Made by a program: the position numbers and the translations under genes. A stretch of 48,686 nt of DNA from a virus. Its lineage: Duplodnaviria; Heunggongvirae; Uroviricota; Caudoviricetes. The stretch is from the IMG/VR virus record IMGVR_UViG_643348546_000001; one strand, given 5' to 3'. Below, in pieces: positions 1 to 16,452 of this stretch. Under the pieces are notes generated by a model. The model saw only the letters and a list, made by a program, of their open reading frames with translations. It made no database searches and was not told where the DNA came from. Position 1 is the stretch's first letter; each line of letters begins with the position of its first letter.

Positions 1-1071
1 TTATTTGATTTCAATTTTGTCCCACTCCCTGCCTCTGTCATCACGATACTGTGATGCCATGGTGTCCGACTTATGCCCGAGAAGATGTTGAGCAAACTTA
101 TCGCTTATCTGCTTCTCATAGAGTCTTGCAGACAAACTGCGCAACTCGTGAAAGGTAGGCGGATCCCCTTCGAAGGAAAGACCTGATGCTTTTCGTGCGC
201 GCATAAAATACCTTGATACTGTGCCGGATGAAAGCGGTTCGCGACGAGTAGATGCAATTATGGTTTCTCCGCCAAGAATCTCTTTGCATTTATCAAGTGT
301 TTCCTTCATTGATATTCCGAGAGCATCAACATGCAATGCTGTTGGGATGGCAATTTTTACGCCTGTTTTGCTTTGCTCGACATAAAGATATCCATCTACG
401 ATATCAGACCACTTCATTTCGCATAAATCACCAACTCGTTGCCCGGTAACAACAGCCAGTTCCATTGCAAGTCTGAGCCAACATGGTAATGATTCTGCTG
501 CTTGATAAATTTTCAGGTATTCGTCAGCCGTAAGTCTTGATCTCCTTACCTCTGATTTTGCTGCGCGAGTGGCAGCGACAGGGTTTGTTGTTATATGGCC
601 TTCAGCTATTGCCTCTCGGAATGCATCGCTCAGTGTTGATCTGATTAACTTGGCTGACGCCGCCTTGCCCTCGTCTATGTATCCATTGAGCATTGCCGCA
701 ATTTCTTTTGTGGTGATGTCTTCAAGTGGAGCATCAGGCAGACCCCTCCTTATTGCTTTAATTTTGCTCATGTAATTTATGAGTGTCTTCTGCTTGATTC
801 CTCTGCTGGCCAGGATTTTTTCGTAGCGATCAAGCCATGAATGTAACGTAACGGAATTATCACTGTTGATTCTCGCTGTCAGAGGCTTGTGTTTGTGTCC
901 TGAAAATAACTCAATGTTGGCCTGTATAGCTTCAGTGATTGCGATTCGCCTGTCTCGGCCTAATCCAAACTCTTTACCCGTCCTTGGGTCCCTGTAGCAG
1001 TAATATCCATTGTTTCTTATATAAAGGTTAGGGGGTAAATCCCGGCGCTCATGACTTCGCCTTCTTCCCAT
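1..1071 (-). CDS. int: Tyrosine site-specific recombinase (integrase), lambda Int type
   Basis: 356-aa ORF; near-identical to remembered lambda Int along the whole length (N-terminal MGRRRSHERRDLPPNLYIRNNGYY, C-terminal HELRSLSARLYEKQ...LLGH...Y catalytic region). Confidence 0.97.
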   Translation of the reverse strand: MGRRRSHERRDLPPNLYIRNNGYYCYRDPRTGKEFGLGRDRRIAITEAIQANIELFSGHKHKPLTARINSDNSVTLHSWLDRYEKILASRGIKQKTLINYMSKIKAIRRGLPDAPLEDITTKEIAAMLNGYIDEGKAASAKLIRSTLSDAFREAIAEGHITTNPVAATRAAKSEVRRSRLTADEYLKIYQAAESLPCWLRLAMELAVVTGQRVGDLCEMKWSDIVDGYLYVEQSKTGVKIAIPTALHVDALGISMKETLDKCKEILGGETIIASTRREPLSSGTVSRYFMRARKASGLSFEGDPPTFHELRSLSARLYEKQISDKFAQHLLGHKSDTMASQYRDDRGREWDKIEIK

Positions 1072-1267: not shown

Positions 1268-1561
1268 CGCAAAGTCTCCGCAATTACACGCAAGAAAAAA
1301 CCGCCATCAGGCGGCTTGGTGTTCTTTCAGTTCTTCAATTCGAATATTGGTTACGTCTGCATGTGCTATCTGCGCCCACAGCATCCAGTGGTCATAGCAG
1401 TCGCTGATGTTCTCGGCTTCGATAACTCTGTTGAATGGTTCTCCATTCTATTCACCTGTAACTCGGAAGTGCATTTATCATCGCCATAAAACAAAACTCG
1501 CCGTAGCGAGTTCAGATAAAAGAAAACCCGCATGACCTGCCCCCACGATTAGATACAACAC

Positions 1562-2395
1562 TCAGTTAGTAACGTCGGAATCTTCATTCTCAGAATGACC
1601 CTTTCTCCAGCCCGCTGCAAATTCAGACGGTGTCTGATAATTCAGCGTGGAGTGCGGGCGGCATTCGTTATAATCCTGCCGCCAGTCATTAATAATTTTC
1701 CTGGCATGAACGATATCGCTGAACCAGTGCTCATTCAAACATTCATCGCGAAATCGTCCGTTAAAGCTCTCAATAAATCCGTTCTGCGTTGGCTTGCCCG
1801 GCTGGATTAAGCGCAACTCAACACCATGCTCAAAGGCCCATTGATCCAGTGCACGGCAAGTGAACTCCGGCCCCTGGTCAGTTCTTATCGTCGCCGGATA
1901 GCCTCGAAACAGTGCAATGCTGTCCAGAATACGCGTGACCTGAACGCCTGAAATCCCAAAGGCAACAGTGACCGTCAGGCATTCCTTTGTGAAATCATCG
2001 ACGCAGGTAAGACACTTGATCCTGCGACCGGTGGAAAGTGCGTCCATGACGAAATCCATCGACCAGGTCAGATTGGGCGCCGCCGGACGGAGCAGCGGCA
2101 GACGTTCTGTTGCCAGCCCTTTACGACGTCTTCTGCGTTTTACGCCCAGGCCACTGAGGTGATAAAGCCGGTACACGCGCTTATGATTAACATGAAGCCC
2201 TTCACGGCGCAGCAACTGCCAAATACGACGGTAGCCAAAACGCCTGCGCTCCAGTGCCAGCTCAGTGATGCGCCCTGATAAATGCGCATCAGCAGCCGGA
2301 CGGTGAGCCTCATAGCGGCAGGTCGACAGGGATAAACCTGTAAGCCTGCAGGCACGACGTTGCGACAGACCGGTCGCATCACACATCAACATCAC
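1562..2395 (-). CDS. IS3-family transposase OrfB (DDE integrase-like catalytic domain)
   Basis: 277-aa ORF with a non-ATG (GTG) start; its frame is open upstream to about 2455 and overlaps the orfA end in the -1 frame, consistent with programmed frameshifting; DDE-type motifs ([15 protein letters not shown]). Confidence 0.85.
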
Positions 2396-2418
2396 GGCTT
2401 CCCGCTTCTGGTCTGTCG

Positions 2419-2682
2419 TCAGTACTTTCGCCCAAGAGCCACCTGAAGCGCCTCTTTATCCAGCATGGCTTCGGCAAGCAGCTTCTTGAGTCTGGCGTTC
2501 TCTTCCTCAAGCGACTTCAGGCGCTTAACTTCAGGCACCTCCATACCGCCATACTTCTTACGCCAGGTGTAAAACGTGGCATCGGAAATGGCATGCTTGC
2601 GGCAGAGTTCACGGGCGGGTACCCCAGCTTCGGCTTCGCGGAGAATACTGATGATCTGTTCGTCGGAAAAACGCTTCTTCAT
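2419..2682 (-). CDS. IS3-family transposase OrfA (HTH DNA-binding, leucine-zipper-like C-terminus)
   Basis: 87-aa ORF; HTH-like N-terminus and heptad leucines ([20 protein letters not shown]) typical of IS3-family OrfA. Confidence 0.85.
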
Positions 2683-2788
2683 GGGGATGTCCTCATGTGG
2701 CTTATGAAGACATTACTAACATCGGGGTGTACTAATCAACGGGGAGCAGGTCACGCACTCGGCGGGTTCGCATTCGTTCAAATTGCGT

Positions 2789-3070
2789 TTACTTCTTGGC
2801 GTTCTGTTCATCCATATCGATATACCATGGGTTGCTTCCCTTGGGCATGTTTAACGACTGCTCGCGATAGTATCTGATGCGCTCCATGAAATACTCGCGT
2901 GAGTGCTCAGGTTGCTCTCATGATACCTGCTCAGTGATAACAGGTATGTTAAGGCGCTCTCTGTACTCCATGCCTGATGCTGCAAGGTCAACGTTTACCT
3001 TGTTCTGTTTTTCTTTCGATTTCTCGGCGATGTTATGCCTGACATTGTCAACCCGCCTCCTTCTGAACAT
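2789..3070 (-). pseudogene. Small ORF (about 93 codons) interrupted by one in-frame TGA; divergent copy of the element at 15080-15328
   Basis: Translation [92 protein letters not shown]; aligns with the TGA-interrupted ORF at 15080-15328 but the stop lies at a different codon. Confidence 0.45.
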
Positions 3071-3332
3071 AACGGTTATAAATCAGTCCCTGAGGGCCAT
3101 AAGGAAGCGGGATGTGCAACTCCTCTGGTTCAGAAACTATCCATTCCCCGGCCATCTCCGCTGGAGAGGTAATGATAAGTTGTTTGCTAATAAAAGGACC
3201 ACTCCTCTCAACAACAAGCTTACCATCTTCATTAATAAAAGCTTGGATGTCAGGTGTGCTTCCACACTTGGTGATGCAGCGTTTGAACATTTTGTGTCCC
3301 CCCATTTTATGGACGGGGTAATTATAACACAT
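3048..3332 (-). CDS. Hypothetical protein (start uncertain)
   Basis: 94-aa ORF in the sense orientation of the leftward early operon; its C-terminus (NRYVQKEAG) resembles the C-terminus of the 250-aa protein at 14316-15068 (NNVYAPKKE). Confidence 0.3.
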   Translation of the reverse strand: MCYNYPVHKMGGHKMFKRCITKCGSTPDIQAFINEDGKLVVERSGPFISKQLIITSPAEMAGEWIVSEPEELHIPLPYGPQGLIYNRYVQKEAG

Positions 3333-11477: not shown

Positions 11478-12023
11478 ATGACTATGCAACCACTTACATA
11501 CCAACAGACTAGCGGATTTAGCCCGACTGCGGTGATAAATCGTTCTCAAACAAAACAGGTGGCAGGCCACGAAAAAATCCGTGATGCCGTCCGCGCCTGG
11601 TCGGCTGTAGATAATCAGGATGTCGTTGCCACACTCATTGTGAATGAGTATCGGGAGCAGGGCGGCGGCACCATCGATTTCCCTGATGATGTCAGCCGTG
11701 CACGCCAGAAGCTGTTCCGCTTCCTCGATAACAAATTCGATTCTGAAAAATACCGAAATAACGTGCGTGAACTGACCCCGGCAATTCTGGCGGTACTACC
11801 GCTGGAATATCGCGGTTACCTGGTTGAGCAGGATAGCTTCATGGCTAGGTTGGCTGAAATGGAAAAGGAACTCAGTGAGGCAAAACAGGCTGTCATTCTC
11901 AACGCACCACGCCACCAGAAACTGAAGGAAATTAGTGAAGGTATTGTATCGATGTTTCGTGTGGACCCAGATCTGGCTGGTCCATTGATGGCGATGGTTA
12001 CTACCATGCTGGGGGCGATATGA
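11478..12023 (+). CDS. YdaT-family protein (CII-position regulator)
   Basis: 181-aa ORF; NEYREQGGG...RELTPAILAVLPLEYR parallels remembered Rac YdaT (EEYLRQGGG...QKLIPAILAILPRELR). Confidence 0.6.
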   Translation: MTMQPLTYQQTSGFSPTAVINRSQTKQVAGHEKIRDAVRAWSAVDNQDVVATLIVNEYREQGGGTIDFPDDVSRARQKLFRFLDNKFDSEKYRNNVRELTPAILAVLPLEYRGYLVEQDSFMARLAEMEKELSEAKQAVILNAPRHQKLKEISEGIVSMFRVDPDLAGPLMAMVTTMLGAI

Positions 12024-12109
12024 CAGGTTCAGAAATGGCGAAAGCCGGTCTGCTGGAACAGAACCGACTTTCAGGTGCAAATCGTAACACACTCATTGCG
12101 GGAGGAATT

Positions 12110-13039
12110 ATGGCAAACACTGCTGAGATATTCAATTTTCCAGTGCCGGATGCGGCACAAAAGGAGCCGCGCGTGGCAGATCTCGATGATGGTTATACGC
12201 GCATTGCAAATGAGTTGCTGGAAGCTGTGATGCTGGCCGGATTAACACAGCACCAGCTTCTGGTCTTCCTGGCTGTCATGCGCAAAACATATGGCTTTAA
12301 TAAAAAACTGGATTGGGTGAGCAACGAGCAACTGTCCGGATTGACCGGGATATTACCGCACAAGTGTTCTGCTGCAAAAAGTGTTCTGGTAAAGCGTGGG
12401 ATTTTGATTCAGAGCGGGCGGAATATCGGTATTAATAATGTGGTCAGTGAATGGTCAACATTACCCGAATCAGGTAAGAAAAATAAAGTTTACCTGAAAG
12501 AGGTAAATTTACCTGAATCAGGTAAGAAAAGTTTACCCAAATCAGGTAAAGGCGTTTACCCGAATCAGGTAAACACAAAAGACAAACTAACAAAAGACAA
12601 TATAAAACCTTTTTCGTCCGAGAATTCTGGCGAATCCTCTGACCAACCAGAAAACGATCTTCCTGTGGTGAAACCAGATGCTGCAATTCAGAGCGGCAGC
12701 AAGTGGGGGACAGCAGAAGACCTGACCGCCGCAGAGTGGATGTTTGACATGGTGAAGACCATCGCACCATCAGCCAGAAAACCGAATTTTGCAGGGTGGG
12801 CTAACGATATCCGCCTGATGCGTGAACGTGACGGACGTAACCACCGCGACATGTGCGTGCTTTTCCGCTGGGCATGCCAGGACAACTTCTGGTCCGGTAA
12901 CGTGCTAAGTCCGGCCAAACTCCGCGACAAGTGGACCCAACTCGAAATCAACCGTAACAAGCAACAGGCAGGCATGATAGCCAGCAAACCAAAACTCGAC
13001 CTGACAAACACTGACTGGATTTACGGGGTGGATTTATGA
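12110..13039 (+). CDS. O: Replication initiator O (chimeric: non-lambda N-terminal origin-binding domain, lambda-like C-terminal P-interaction domain)
   Basis: ATG at 12110 after GGAGGAATT; C-terminal about 130 aa match lambda O (SENSGESSDQPENDL...TNTDWIYGVDL); N-terminal half differs; iterons embedded in the gene. Confidence 0.9.
   Translation: MANTAEIFNFPVPDAAQKEPRVADLDDGYTRIANELLEAVMLAGLTQHQLLVFLAVMRKTYGFNKKLDWVSNEQLSGLTGILPHKCSAAKSVLVKRGILIQSGRNIGINNVVSEWSTLPESGKKNKVYLKEVNLPESGKKSLPKSGKGVYPNQVNTKDKLTKDNIKPFSSENSGESSDQPENDLPVVKPDAAIQSGSKWGTAEDLTAAEWMFDMVKTIAPSARKPNFAGWANDIRLMRERDGRNHRDMCVLFRWACQDNFWSGNVLSPAKLRDKWTQLEINRNKQQAGMIASKPKLDLTNTDWIYGVDL
12461..12615 (+). repeat. Replication origin: five 18-19 bp iterons (TTTACC[C/T]GAA[A/T]CAGGTAA[A/G] type) followed by an AT-rich segment
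   Basis: Iterons at 12461-12477, 12489-12507, 12508-12526, 12532-12550, 12555-12573, each an internal inverted repeat TTACC..GGTAA, then the A-rich tract CACAAAAGACAAACTAACAAAAGACAATATAAAACC. Confidence 0.85.
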
Positions 13040-13737
13040 AAAACATCGCCGCACAGATGGTTAACTTTGACCGTGAGCAGATGCGTCGGATCGCCAACAA
13101 CATGCCGGAACAGTACGACGAAAAGCCACAGGTACAGCAGGTAGCGCAGTTCATCAACGGTGTATTCAGCCAGTTGCTGGCAACTTTCCCGGCGAGCCTG
13201 GCTAACCGTGACCAGAATGAACTGAACGAAATCCGCCGCCAGTGGGTGCTGGCTTTTCGGGAAAACGGGATCACCACAATGGAACAGGTTAACGCTGGAA
13301 TGCGCGTAGCCCGTCGGCAGAATCGACCATTCCTGCCATCACCCGGGCAGTTTGTCGCCTGGTGCCGGGAAGAAGCATCCGTTAACGCCGGGCTGCCAAA
13401 CGCCAGCGAGCTGGTTGATATGGTTTACGAGTATTGCCGGAAGCGTGGCCTTTATCCGGATGCAGAGTCTTATCCATGGAAATCAAACGCGCACTACTGG
13501 TTGGTTACCAACCTGTATCAGAACATGCGGGCCAATGCGCTGACTGATGCGGAATTACGGCGCAAGGCTGCCGATGAACTGACTTGTATGACCGCGCGAA
13601 TTAATCGTGGTGAGGCGATACCTGAACCAGTAAAACAACTTCCTGTCATGGGCGGTAGACCACTTAACCGGGCTCAGGCTCTGGCGAAGATCGCAGAAAT
13701 CAAAGCTAAGTTCGGACTGAAAGGAGCCAGTGTATGA
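13036..13737 (+). CDS. P: Replication protein P (DnaB helicase loader)
   Basis: 233-aa ORF near-identical to lambda P (MKNIAAQMVNFDREQMRRIANNMPEQYDEKPQVQQ...). Confidence 0.96.
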   Translation: MKNIAAQMVNFDREQMRRIANNMPEQYDEKPQVQQVAQFINGVFSQLLATFPASLANRDQNELNEIRRQWVLAFRENGITTMEQVNAGMRVARRQNRPFLPSPGQFVAWCREEASVNAGLPNASELVDMVYEYCRKRGLYPDAESYPWKSNAHYWLVTNLYQNMRANALTDAELRRKAADELTCMTARINRGEAIPEPVKQLPVMGGRPLNRAQALAKIAEIKAKFGLKGASV

Positions 13738-14315: not shown

Positions 14316-15068
14316 ATGGATCCTAAATTACTGTATGCCACGTTTAAACGAAATGACGCACCAGCTTGGCGCTGCCCGAACTGTATGAATGAAACACTGG
14401 AGATTGTCGCTGATAGTTTTGTAGAAACTGATTCAAGCGCAACAACTCAGTTTAGAGATGAAGTATGGTTTGATGAGGAAATGTCGGGAGGAGTATTCAG
14501 TTGCGTGCTGCGCTGTACCCGCCAAGCCTGCCAGGAGAAGGTTGCTTTGTCTGGGCAGGTTGTTGCTGTAGAATGCTTCAATGACGAAATGACGGAGCGT
14601 TGGTATGTTTCTGGTTTCCGTCCTAAGTATTTCTATCCACCACTTCCTCTATTCCTGTTTCCTGAAAAGTGCCCTGAAGATATAGCTGATCTCTTGGCGG
14701 AAGTATCAGCTCTGATCCCCTCGCACCCAGCTTCAGCGGTGAACACCATGAGAACCATACTGGAGATGATGCTTGATAGTCTTGATGTACCAAGAGAGAA
14801 AACAGTTAAAGGCAAGATAATACGTCTTTCTACGCATGAAAGAATCACAAATTATTCAGATAAACTGGGACCAAATAAAGATGCATTCATGGCGTTAAAG
14901 TGGTTGGGGAATCACGGCAGTCATGGAGGGATTAAAGTCACAAGGTCCTCTATTAATGATGCCTGCATTCTCATTGGTCATTTGATTGACTTCTTATTCT
15001 TAGAAAGCCCGGATGTAACTATTCATATTGAACGGATAAACAACGTGTATGCACCCAAAAAGGAGTAA
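14316..15068 (+). CDS. Hypothetical protein with N-terminal zinc-ribbon-like CxxC motifs (cargo gene)
   Basis: 250-aa ORF; GGAG RBS before the ATG at 14316; WRCPNCMNE...SCVLRCTRQACQEK cysteine cluster; lies in an insertion between ren and the nin block; inverted repeat TTAACG-N10-CGTTAA just upstream. Confidence 0.7.
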   Translation: MDPKLLYATFKRNDAPAWRCPNCMNETLEIVADSFVETDSSATTQFRDEVWFDEEMSGGVFSCVLRCTRQACQEKVALSGQVVAVECFNDEMTERWYVSGFRPKYFYPPLPLFLFPEKCPEDIADLLAEVSALIPSHPASAVNTMRTILEMMLDSLDVPREKTVKGKIIRLSTHERITNYSDKLGPNKDAFMALKWLGNHGSHGGIKVTRSSINDACILIGHLIDFLFLESPDVTIHIERINNVYAPKKE

Positions 15069-15079
15069 AACGTAACGCC

Positions 15080-15328
15080 ATGTCGAAGCGGAATATTGCC
15101 GCTAAAACACAAGAAGAGCGCGAGAAGGTTAACGTTGACCTTGCTGTCTCCTGAGTTACCTACAAAGAGCGCCTTAATATACCGGTTATTGCCGAAGCGG
15201 TGATGCGTGAGCAGCCTGAGCATTTGCGGGACTATTTTTTGGAGCGGCCACGACATTACCGCGAGCAGAGCATCGCGCTGCCCAAGGCATCCGCTCCTCG
15301 ACATCTTAAGCAGGAAGGTGAAAAATGA
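15080..15328 (+). pseudogene. Small ORF (83 codons) interrupted by one in-frame TGA; its terminal TGA overlaps the ATG of the downstream gene
   Basis: [81 protein letters not shown]; internal TGA at 15152-15154; ATGA overlap with the next gene at 15325-15328. Confidence 0.45.
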
Positions 15329-15807
15329 TAAGTGCAGAAGGACTGCAGCGGTTACTTAATTTATCGGAGCCTCCATCTGATGAACTGATTGATGTTTATC
15401 TTCAATTCTGCATGATTTTTCCTAGGGTCGAGCAAAGTTTTTTTGGTGGCTTTGCTAAGGGGGAAGACAGTTTAAATTATGCGCGAACGTTACTTGACGC
15501 CGGGATAAAGGTGCCCAACGAACTTTTTCACGATTTTAAGCAGAGATACATTTTGAATGGGGATGCGCAGGAAAGACTTGACGCCCTCTGTGTCGGTCGA
15601 GAGAGAGATAGGCGGGGAATAGTTAATGGACTTCAAAATGACGCAGCAACAGATCTAAACACCATGTCTACAGTATTAAAGATAGTTATAAGGATAAGAA
15701 ATAACCTTTTCCACGGAAATAAAGACGCTTATCTTTTTGTTGATTCTCAAGAGCAAGCGCAACTATTGAGGTGGTGCGTGAGATTTCTCCAAGGATTATT
15801 AAATTAA
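15325..15807 (+). CDS. Hypothetical protein with HEPN-like R-x4-H motif (candidate RNase effector)
   Basis: 160-aa ORF; C-terminal region carries [15 protein letters not shown] (R-N-x-x-x-H) as in HEPN-superfamily RNases; start overlaps the upstream small ORF stop. Confidence 0.6.
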
Positions 15808-15996: not shown

Positions 15997-16452
15997 GTGA
16001 ACCTCCTACAAGATGGCATCAAATTGCATCGTGGTAACTTCACCGCTATCGGTCAGCAGATCCAGCCTTATCTGGAGGACGGCAAATGCTTTCGCATGGT
16101 GCTTAAACCGTGGCGCGAGAGACGCAGTCTTTCCCAGAATGCACTCAGCCACATGTGGTACAGCGAAATCAGTGAATACCTCATCAGCAGGGGTAAAACG
16201 TTCGCCACTCCACCTTGGGTAAAAGATGCTCTCAAACACACTTATCTCGGTTATGAAACCAAAGAACTGGTTGATGTCGTAACCGGTGAAATCACCACCA
16301 TTCAGTCATTACGTCATACCTCCGATCTCGATACCGGAGAGATGTATGTCTTCCTGTGTAAGGTTGAAGCCTGGGCGATGAATATTGGCTGCCACCTGAC
16401 TATTCCGCAGAGCTGCGAGTTCCAGCTGCTCCGCGACAAGCAGGAGGCGTAA
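15997..16452 (+). CDS. ybcN: YbcN-like protein of the nin region (DLP12 YbcN family)
   Basis: 151-aa ORF, GTG start after GGAGG; placement and length match DLP12 ybcN preceding ninE-ybcO-rusA. Confidence 0.7.

Follow-up and report, generated by a model that had tools for sequence, protein, structure and literature searches.

An 82-codon open reading frame in a lambdoid prophage of Escherichia coli is interrupted by an in-frame TGA, and a homologous copy in the same prophage is interrupted at another codon, which raises the question of whether these are two dead genes, genes read through their stops, or a conserved element that does not code for protein. The window analysed here is the whole 48,686-nucleotide stretch of IMG/VR record IMGVR_UViG_643348546_000001. 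It includes the integrase gene (1-1071, minus strand), replication genes O and P (12020-13737) and ninB/ybcN (15997-16452), followed by rusA, Q, lysis and structural genes, and near-identical prophages adjoin ybhC, at the integrase end, in complete E. coli genomes such as STEC313.

The first copy (copy A; 15080..15328, plus strand) lies in the nin region between ren and ninB/ybcN, its ATG separated by 11 nt from the stop codon of an upstream gene for a 250-aa DUF4145 protein (14316..15068, plus strand; PF13643, E=7.9e-12; phrog_1305). Translation from the ATG at 15080 gave 82 codons plus a stop, codon 25 being the sole in-frame interruption. A 160-aa reading frame at 15325-15807 begins with an ATG (15325-15327) that shares nucleotides with the terminal TGA (15326-15328). 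The second copy (copy B; 2789..3070, minus strand), located at the distal end of the leftward operon near xis and int, comprises 93 codons with a single stop at codon 51. In a pairwise alignment, copy B has Gly (GGC) opposite the TGA of copy A, and its own TGA stands opposite a CGT (Arg) codon of copy A. An IS3-family insertion sequence, containing transposase reading frames and an Rfam IS1222_FSE match at 2335-2452, lies 36 bp downstream of copy B (1540..2753, minus strand, boundaries approximate). Homology to uninterrupted prophages stops at its edge, at about position 2754, and the element is missing from the otherwise near-identical prophages of FORC 064 and STEC313.

When the premature stops were replaced, both copies matched the Pfam family PF06440 (DNA_pol3_theta), with E=3.5e-29 and 100.8 bits for copy A and E=3.1e-29 and 100.9 bits for copy B, roughly three times the gathering cutoff of 34.6 bits and well above any chance similarity. 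Repaired copy A also matched the solved structures of the P1 HOT protein (PDB 1se7, E=4e-31, residues 4-80) and E. coli theta (PDB 1du2, E=2e-18, residues 4-69), while in the PHROG collection the match was phrog_1105, 'DNA polymerase III theta subunit' (E=7.7e-32). BLAST of phage genomes found annotated theta or hot genes in P1, HK639 and many phages of Klebsiella, Enterobacter and Salmonella, and intact theta proteins at 70-82% identity number in the hundreds. Among these intact relatives dN/dS is about 0.09. The original prediction that the interrupted frames derive from a protein of approximately 80 amino acids is therefore borne out by the Pfam match and by the existence of intact relatives. 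The theta subunit is not itself an enzyme but a partner of epsilon, the proofreading subunit of DNA polymerase III, which it stabilises; a holE deletion is viable, so that host theta is dispensable, and P1 HOT can replace theta (PMC2528190).

The best solved match to copy A, P1 Hot (PDB 1se7, 2ido), is phage-encoded, of the same length class, and has the motifs KVNVDLAASGVAYKERLN and REQPE in common with the window copies. However, P1 Hot is intact, expressed and binds epsilon, whereas the window copies are interrupted and drifting, and they reside in a lambdoid prophage (one in the nin region, the other near xis and int) rather than in P1. The E. coli HolE protein (PDB 1du2, 2ae9, 2axd) belongs to PF06440 like the window copies, but is encoded by a chromosomal host gene of 76 aa, while the window copies are pseudogenes nearer to the phage Hot-like branch of 82-85 aa. 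Four PHROG families (29833, 20697, 10131 and 27764), with profiles of 48-67 aa, match parts of theta only; they look as if built from fragments of interrupted theta genes, consistent with frequent breakage of this gene in phages.

Judged by their sequences, copies A and B descend from members of the theta/HOT family, yet are not functional members of it: both lack the uninterrupted reading frame of 76-85 codons from the family start, and neither shows purifying selection with retention of the invariant residues. The RefSeq/PGAP annotation of 14EC001, FORC 064, STEC313 and other genomes labels these two features, identically placed with respect to the adjoining genes, as 'DNA polymerase III subunit theta', pseudogene with an internal stop; for copy A it does not differ from the description given here.

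The lesion of copy A is a GGA to TGA change (15152..15154, plus strand) at codon 25, a position where all 52 distinct intact relatives have Gly. Copies at least 95% identical to copy A (clade A) occur in about 51 of 5,426 complete E. coli genomes. Clade-A instances were drawn from E. coli genomes, IMG/VR, ENA, Logan and JGI contigs, and every one of the more than 40 examined has the TGA at codon 25, including three fetched E. coli genomes, nine IMG/VR loci, ten ENA/Logan contigs and four metagenome contigs. The latter four were retrieved by a DNA scan with NNN at codon 25; all four read TGA. The same scan of species-representative genomes returned no matches. A search of 5.8 billion proteins for close intact relatives of copy A yielded a sole match at 99% identity, which is a translation artefact: this protein (P0001) shows W in place of both the codon 25 stop and the terminal TGA, and translating the contigs under the bacterial code does not yield it. 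Both P0001 and a second entry at 99%, P0121, are clade-A alleles translated with TGA as Trp. The closest truly intact relatives are 80-82% identical to copy A; in comparisons with intact relatives synonymous sites are saturated (dS 1.2-2), leaving dN/dS uninformative about the timing of the loss.

Variation within clade A amounts to six non-synonymous and three synonymous sites and one indel in 249 bp. The proportion of non-synonymous sites (6/9) departs from the family dN/dS of 0.09 (P=0.007) and fits a dN/dS of 1. One sub-lineage, SCU-484/L137, has an extra 1-nt deletion together with D51G and E55G at invariant residues, and is labelled 'frameshifted; internal stop' by PGAP. Copy A itself departs from the consensus at seven columns that are at least 95% conserved.

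Several other features of the copy A locus were recorded. A loss of the theta ribosome-binding site through insertion of the DUF4145 gene was considered; the anti-SD duplex energy of -7.9 kcal/mol, against +0.9 to -12.2 in intact genes, is uninformative on this point. A promoter and terminator scan around the locus gave counts at the level of shuffled sequence. One theta remnant, at loci L007 and L160-L162, is chimeric, its 5' part being of a holE-like lineage (VELAAIGVAFKE), joined at AEAVMREQ to the 3' part of the clade-A allele with the 1-nt deletion. This structure suggests recombination inside theta during the exchange of neighbouring modules.

Copy B is a second theta/HOT pseudogene, of an 85-aa sub-lineage, and its segment is present in about 83 genomes. 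Its premature TGA (2918..2920, minus strand) arose from CGA at the invariant Arg of the A-R-EQPEH motif. The ATG at 3070 is not the ancestral start. The ancestral ATG, preceded by AGGAGG, lies at 3043..3045 (minus strand) and has been put out of frame by the loss of 1 nt at codons 3-4: where the intact relative L126 reads ATGTCTGGTCATAAC, copy B reads ATGTCAGGCAT-AAC and is 1 nt shorter. Across the whole copy B lineage this ATG and its AGGAGG are 1 nt out of the theta frame. PGAP therefore starts copy B at an upstream ATG inside the preceding gene, without flagging the out-of-frame ancestral start, and copy B therefore has two lesions.

The TGA of copy B is common to 27 IMG/VR loci, one of which (L122) has acquired a second stop beside it, while two others (L120 and L121) have Y-to-H and P-to-L replacements at conserved residues. 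Sister alleles in four loci (L123, L125, L128 and L129) retain CGA (Arg); of these, L125 has a 1-nt deletion and L128 and L129 a 2-nt deletion. Stop-free alleles of the lineage are rare, namely L123, P0238 (WP_052509999.1) and P0241. These alleles could be translated from the upstream ATG, and the frameshift near the start then need not be the first lesion. The variable sites of the lineage comprise 14 non-synonymous or nonsense and six synonymous changes, plus two indel events, a ratio incompatible with the family dN/dS of 0.09 (P=1e-4) and compatible with a dN/dS of 1. Copy B departs from the consensus at 10 columns that are at least 95% conserved.

The two copies are not recent duplicates: at about 70-76% nucleotide identity, they represent separate theta sub-lineages. 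Copy B is at least as decayed as copy A and was inactivated independently. The proposal of two separate inactivations at different codons, made when the locus was first described, thus stood up. Uninterrupted homologues, for which a search had been recommended, exist both as the intact theta proteins described above and as the rare stop-free alleles of the copy B lineage.

The genes on either side of copy B, at 3048-3332 and 1366-1533 (both minus strand), likewise look relaxed. The first, a 94-aa reading frame (phrog_9613), has 15 non-synonymous and 10 synonymous variable sites, one nonsense change and two indels among 33 loci. The second, a 55-aa reading frame separated from copy B by the IS3-family element, is labelled 'internal stop' in STEC313.

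Taken together, the two reading frames very probably represent phage-borne genes of the HolE / P1 Hot family, homologous to the theta subunit of DNA polymerase III, that have become pseudogenes and are decaying. In both lineages the changes are mostly non-synonymous and hit invariant residues, which indicates decay rather than readthrough or an RNA element. Since inactivation, both copies have drifted neutrally. Translation from 15080 would give a 24-residue peptide incapable of forming the three-helix epsilon-binding domain, so that no functional epsilon-binding protein is expected from copy A. The remnant probably persists because its inactivation is recent, and also because its last 20 or so nucleotides provide the 160-aa gene with a ribosome-binding site and a start codon; that gene would now initiate alone, relying on its own GGAAGGTG site. 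The loss of theta is presumably tolerated because the host supplies its own theta, which is itself dispensable.

The 3' end of copy A (15305..15328, plus strand) comprises the GGAAGGTG ribosome-binding site and an ATGA overlap in which the next gene starts, and every lineage with the 160-aa gene has kept the junction GAAGGTGAAAAATGATAAGTG. Translational coupling of this kind is not peculiar to the window. The intact theta genes of lambdoid and other temperate phages (HK639, Klebsiella phages; phrog_1105) resemble copy A in lying upstream of ninB and in having a stop codon that in most loci runs into or directly adjoins the start (ATGA or GTGA) of a following gene that varies, and differ from the window copies in being uninterrupted and under purifying selection. 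In the loci compared (L027-L097 and L164-L209) the next gene after intact theta is one of at least 15 unrelated reading frames of 59-216 aa. As the overlap is common across the family, that at 15325 was inherited and does not denote a specific partnership. The last 20-25 theta codons survive beside the start of the next gene in every remnant, even in heavily decayed ones. On this comparison, a slot for variable cargo appears to lie upstream of ninB, with the 3' end of theta as its constant left edge.

Directly 5' of many intact theta genes (L050, L052, L054, L068, L080, L081, L088, L093, L095 and L096) there is a GC-rich hairpin followed by a T-run (AATCCCCTC...GAGGGGATTTTTT-ATG). It resembles an intrinsic terminator, and its 3' arm could double as a ribosome-binding site.

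The cargo gene of the window (15325..15807, plus strand; phrog_27260) encodes an all-alpha protein of 160 aa, for which sequence searches of Pfam, PADLOC and PDB gave no match. Its relatives number 169 at E<=1e-3 in a profile search of 1.84 billion representatives. Across 50 aligned relatives, with identity down to about 20%, residues E36, R74, R123, R125, N127, H130 and K133 are invariant, so that R125-NNLF-H130 conforms to the Rx4-6H motif of HEPN proteins. Two of the 50 relatives matched HEPN_RiboL-PSP weakly (best E=1e-4). The AF2 model (pLDDT 95) is all-alpha, and a Foldseek search with it returned nothing below E=0.8, no solved structure being a clear match. A HEPN-like nature of this protein is plausible but unproven. 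In five clade-A prophages (L008, L019, L022, L023 and L149) the 160-aa gene is itself truncated to reading frames of 98-132 aa, which shows that the neighbouring cargo is decaying too in some hosts.

Loss of theta is not confined to the window. It has been broken independently in at least 13 lineages, and further independent lesions were found in L006, L146, L147 and L151. In cargo-first samples from IMG/VR theta is broken in 27 of 58 loci, across four downstream gene types, and the lesions differ between lineages. In the sampling that began from four genes other than the 160-aa gene, the frequency is 6/10 loci beside a 211-aa gene, 8/15 beside a 159-aa gene, 1/9 beside a 90-aa gene and 0/12 beside a 73-aa gene. 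Six other E. coli prophage lineages have retained an intact theta.

At close range the 160-aa gene family falls into eight clusters with 74-99% identity, and theta or a theta remnant precedes the gene in every lineage. Theta is intact in K. aerogenes, in Salmonella Braenderup and on metagenome contig L150. It is broken in E. coli clade A and in the sister lineage L147, which has many stops, in the OkiPb01694 type, which combines a TAG with an internal deletion, in Enterobacter mori, where codon 63 is TAA, and in E. quasiroggenkampii. Thus theta is broken in 5 of 8 lineages with the 160-aa gene and in 12 of 12 IMG/VR loci, although these 12 loci represent only two lineages. In the two Salmonella Braenderup loci, L144 and L145, the uninterrupted theta beside the 160-aa gene has its otherwise invariant 11-letter core changed to RDQPVEYQQYF; this may be a functionally altered or a silently decaying copy.

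That theta loss is tied specifically to the 160-aa gene was initially suggested by the theta-first sample, the best 80 tblastn hits, in which theta was broken in 0 of 71 loci beside other cargo, against 5 of 8 lineages beside the 160-aa gene. The cargo-first control from four other downstream genes showed this difference to be a sampling bias, and the link was rejected. In the loci sampled, phage theta loss is therefore recurrent but not bound to the 160-aa gene. A role for the reading frame as the toxin-antitoxin partner of a HEPN toxin was also discarded: it encodes theta rather than MNT or another antitoxin, and theta is coupled to many unrelated genes.

The strongest remaining competitor to neutral decay is that breakage of phage theta has been selected, either because the intact product is harmful in lysogens, for instance as a costly extra epsilon-binding subunit, or because the lesions uncouple translation and so lower the expression of the overlapping downstream gene, which is possibly toxic or defence-related. 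Its attraction lies in the number of independent disruptions affecting a gene of just 82-85 codons, in the breakage of both copies within one otherwise largely intact prophage, in the uniformly broken IMG/VR loci and majority of broken lineages beside the 160-aa gene, and in the stop/start overlap being the rule in the theta family. Two disrupted copies of about 250 bp, with the other early genes mostly intact, exceed what uniform random damage would give, so that a gene-specific cause, either relaxed or negative selection, is needed. However, in K. aerogenes, Salmonella and L150 the 160-aa gene follows a theta that is intact and ends in the same ATGA junction; breakage is about as common beside the unrelated 211-aa and 159-aa genes; the 12 IMG/VR loci reduce to two lineages; and intact theta is kept in the six other E. 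coli lineages. Moreover, the non-synonymous to synonymous ratios after inactivation fit neutrality, and toxicity of theta or HOT is not reported in PMC2528190. Adaptive loss is thus an unlikely explanation: counter-selection of intact theta may be compatible with the data, but is not required by them. The same observations, together with the identity of the reading frame as a homologue of theta and P1 HOT, weigh against the toxin or activator role, tied to the HEPN-like gene, that the original prediction had offered as an example.

Programmed recoding, in which UGA would be read through by insertion of Trp or selenocysteine to give a functional full-length theta, is much less likely still. UGA is the leakiest stop codon in E. 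coli, and the frame past the TGA is still open in most clade-A copies; to judge from the sequence alone, UGA readthrough at a low level could occur. However, UGA replaces an invariant Gly in copy A and an invariant Arg in copy B, not Cys, and is confined to one clade per copy, other relatives having Gly or Arg at these positions. After the TGA, further frameshifts, second stops and radical replacements were added, showing that the downstream frame is not maintained, and the region offers neither an Rfam element nor a distinctive RNA structure: an Rfam scan of the window found no family in the copy A region, its sole match being the IS frameshift element, and the predicted fold of that region is no better than those of shuffled sequences (z = -1.06).

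The idea that the conserved unit is a non-coding RNA or regulatory leader rather than a gene remnant is the least credible of all, since its relatives include hundreds of intact reading frames for strongly conserved proteins, its match to solved proteins is full-length, its RNA fold is unremarkable, and the behaviour of a cis element is limited to the short 3' junction, where the 20-25 codons kept in every remnant hold the translation start region of the next gene.

In public protein sets both pseudogenes appear as 'intact' entries whose TGA is translated as Trp (P0001, P0121, P0239 and P0240). These appear to stem from gene calling on short contigs with a code in which TGA is Trp, and they could mislead homology-based checks for intact alleles, which calls for caution in the use of such databases.

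Copies A and B are an ordinary pseudogene pair, a known gene type in a known state that standard annotation had already labelled as such. The feature in the window is by itself of little import, and nothing about it points to recoding, a toxin or a new RNA. Of wider relevance is that a theta/Hot gene immediately before ninB is frequent in temperate phages of Enterobacteriaceae and has been lost repeatedly. This comparison is of modest value: the 3' end of theta, which supplies a ribosome-binding site and a start codon to whichever gene follows, would serve as a left border of the cargo slot, useful in annotating the variable cargo genes of the nin region.
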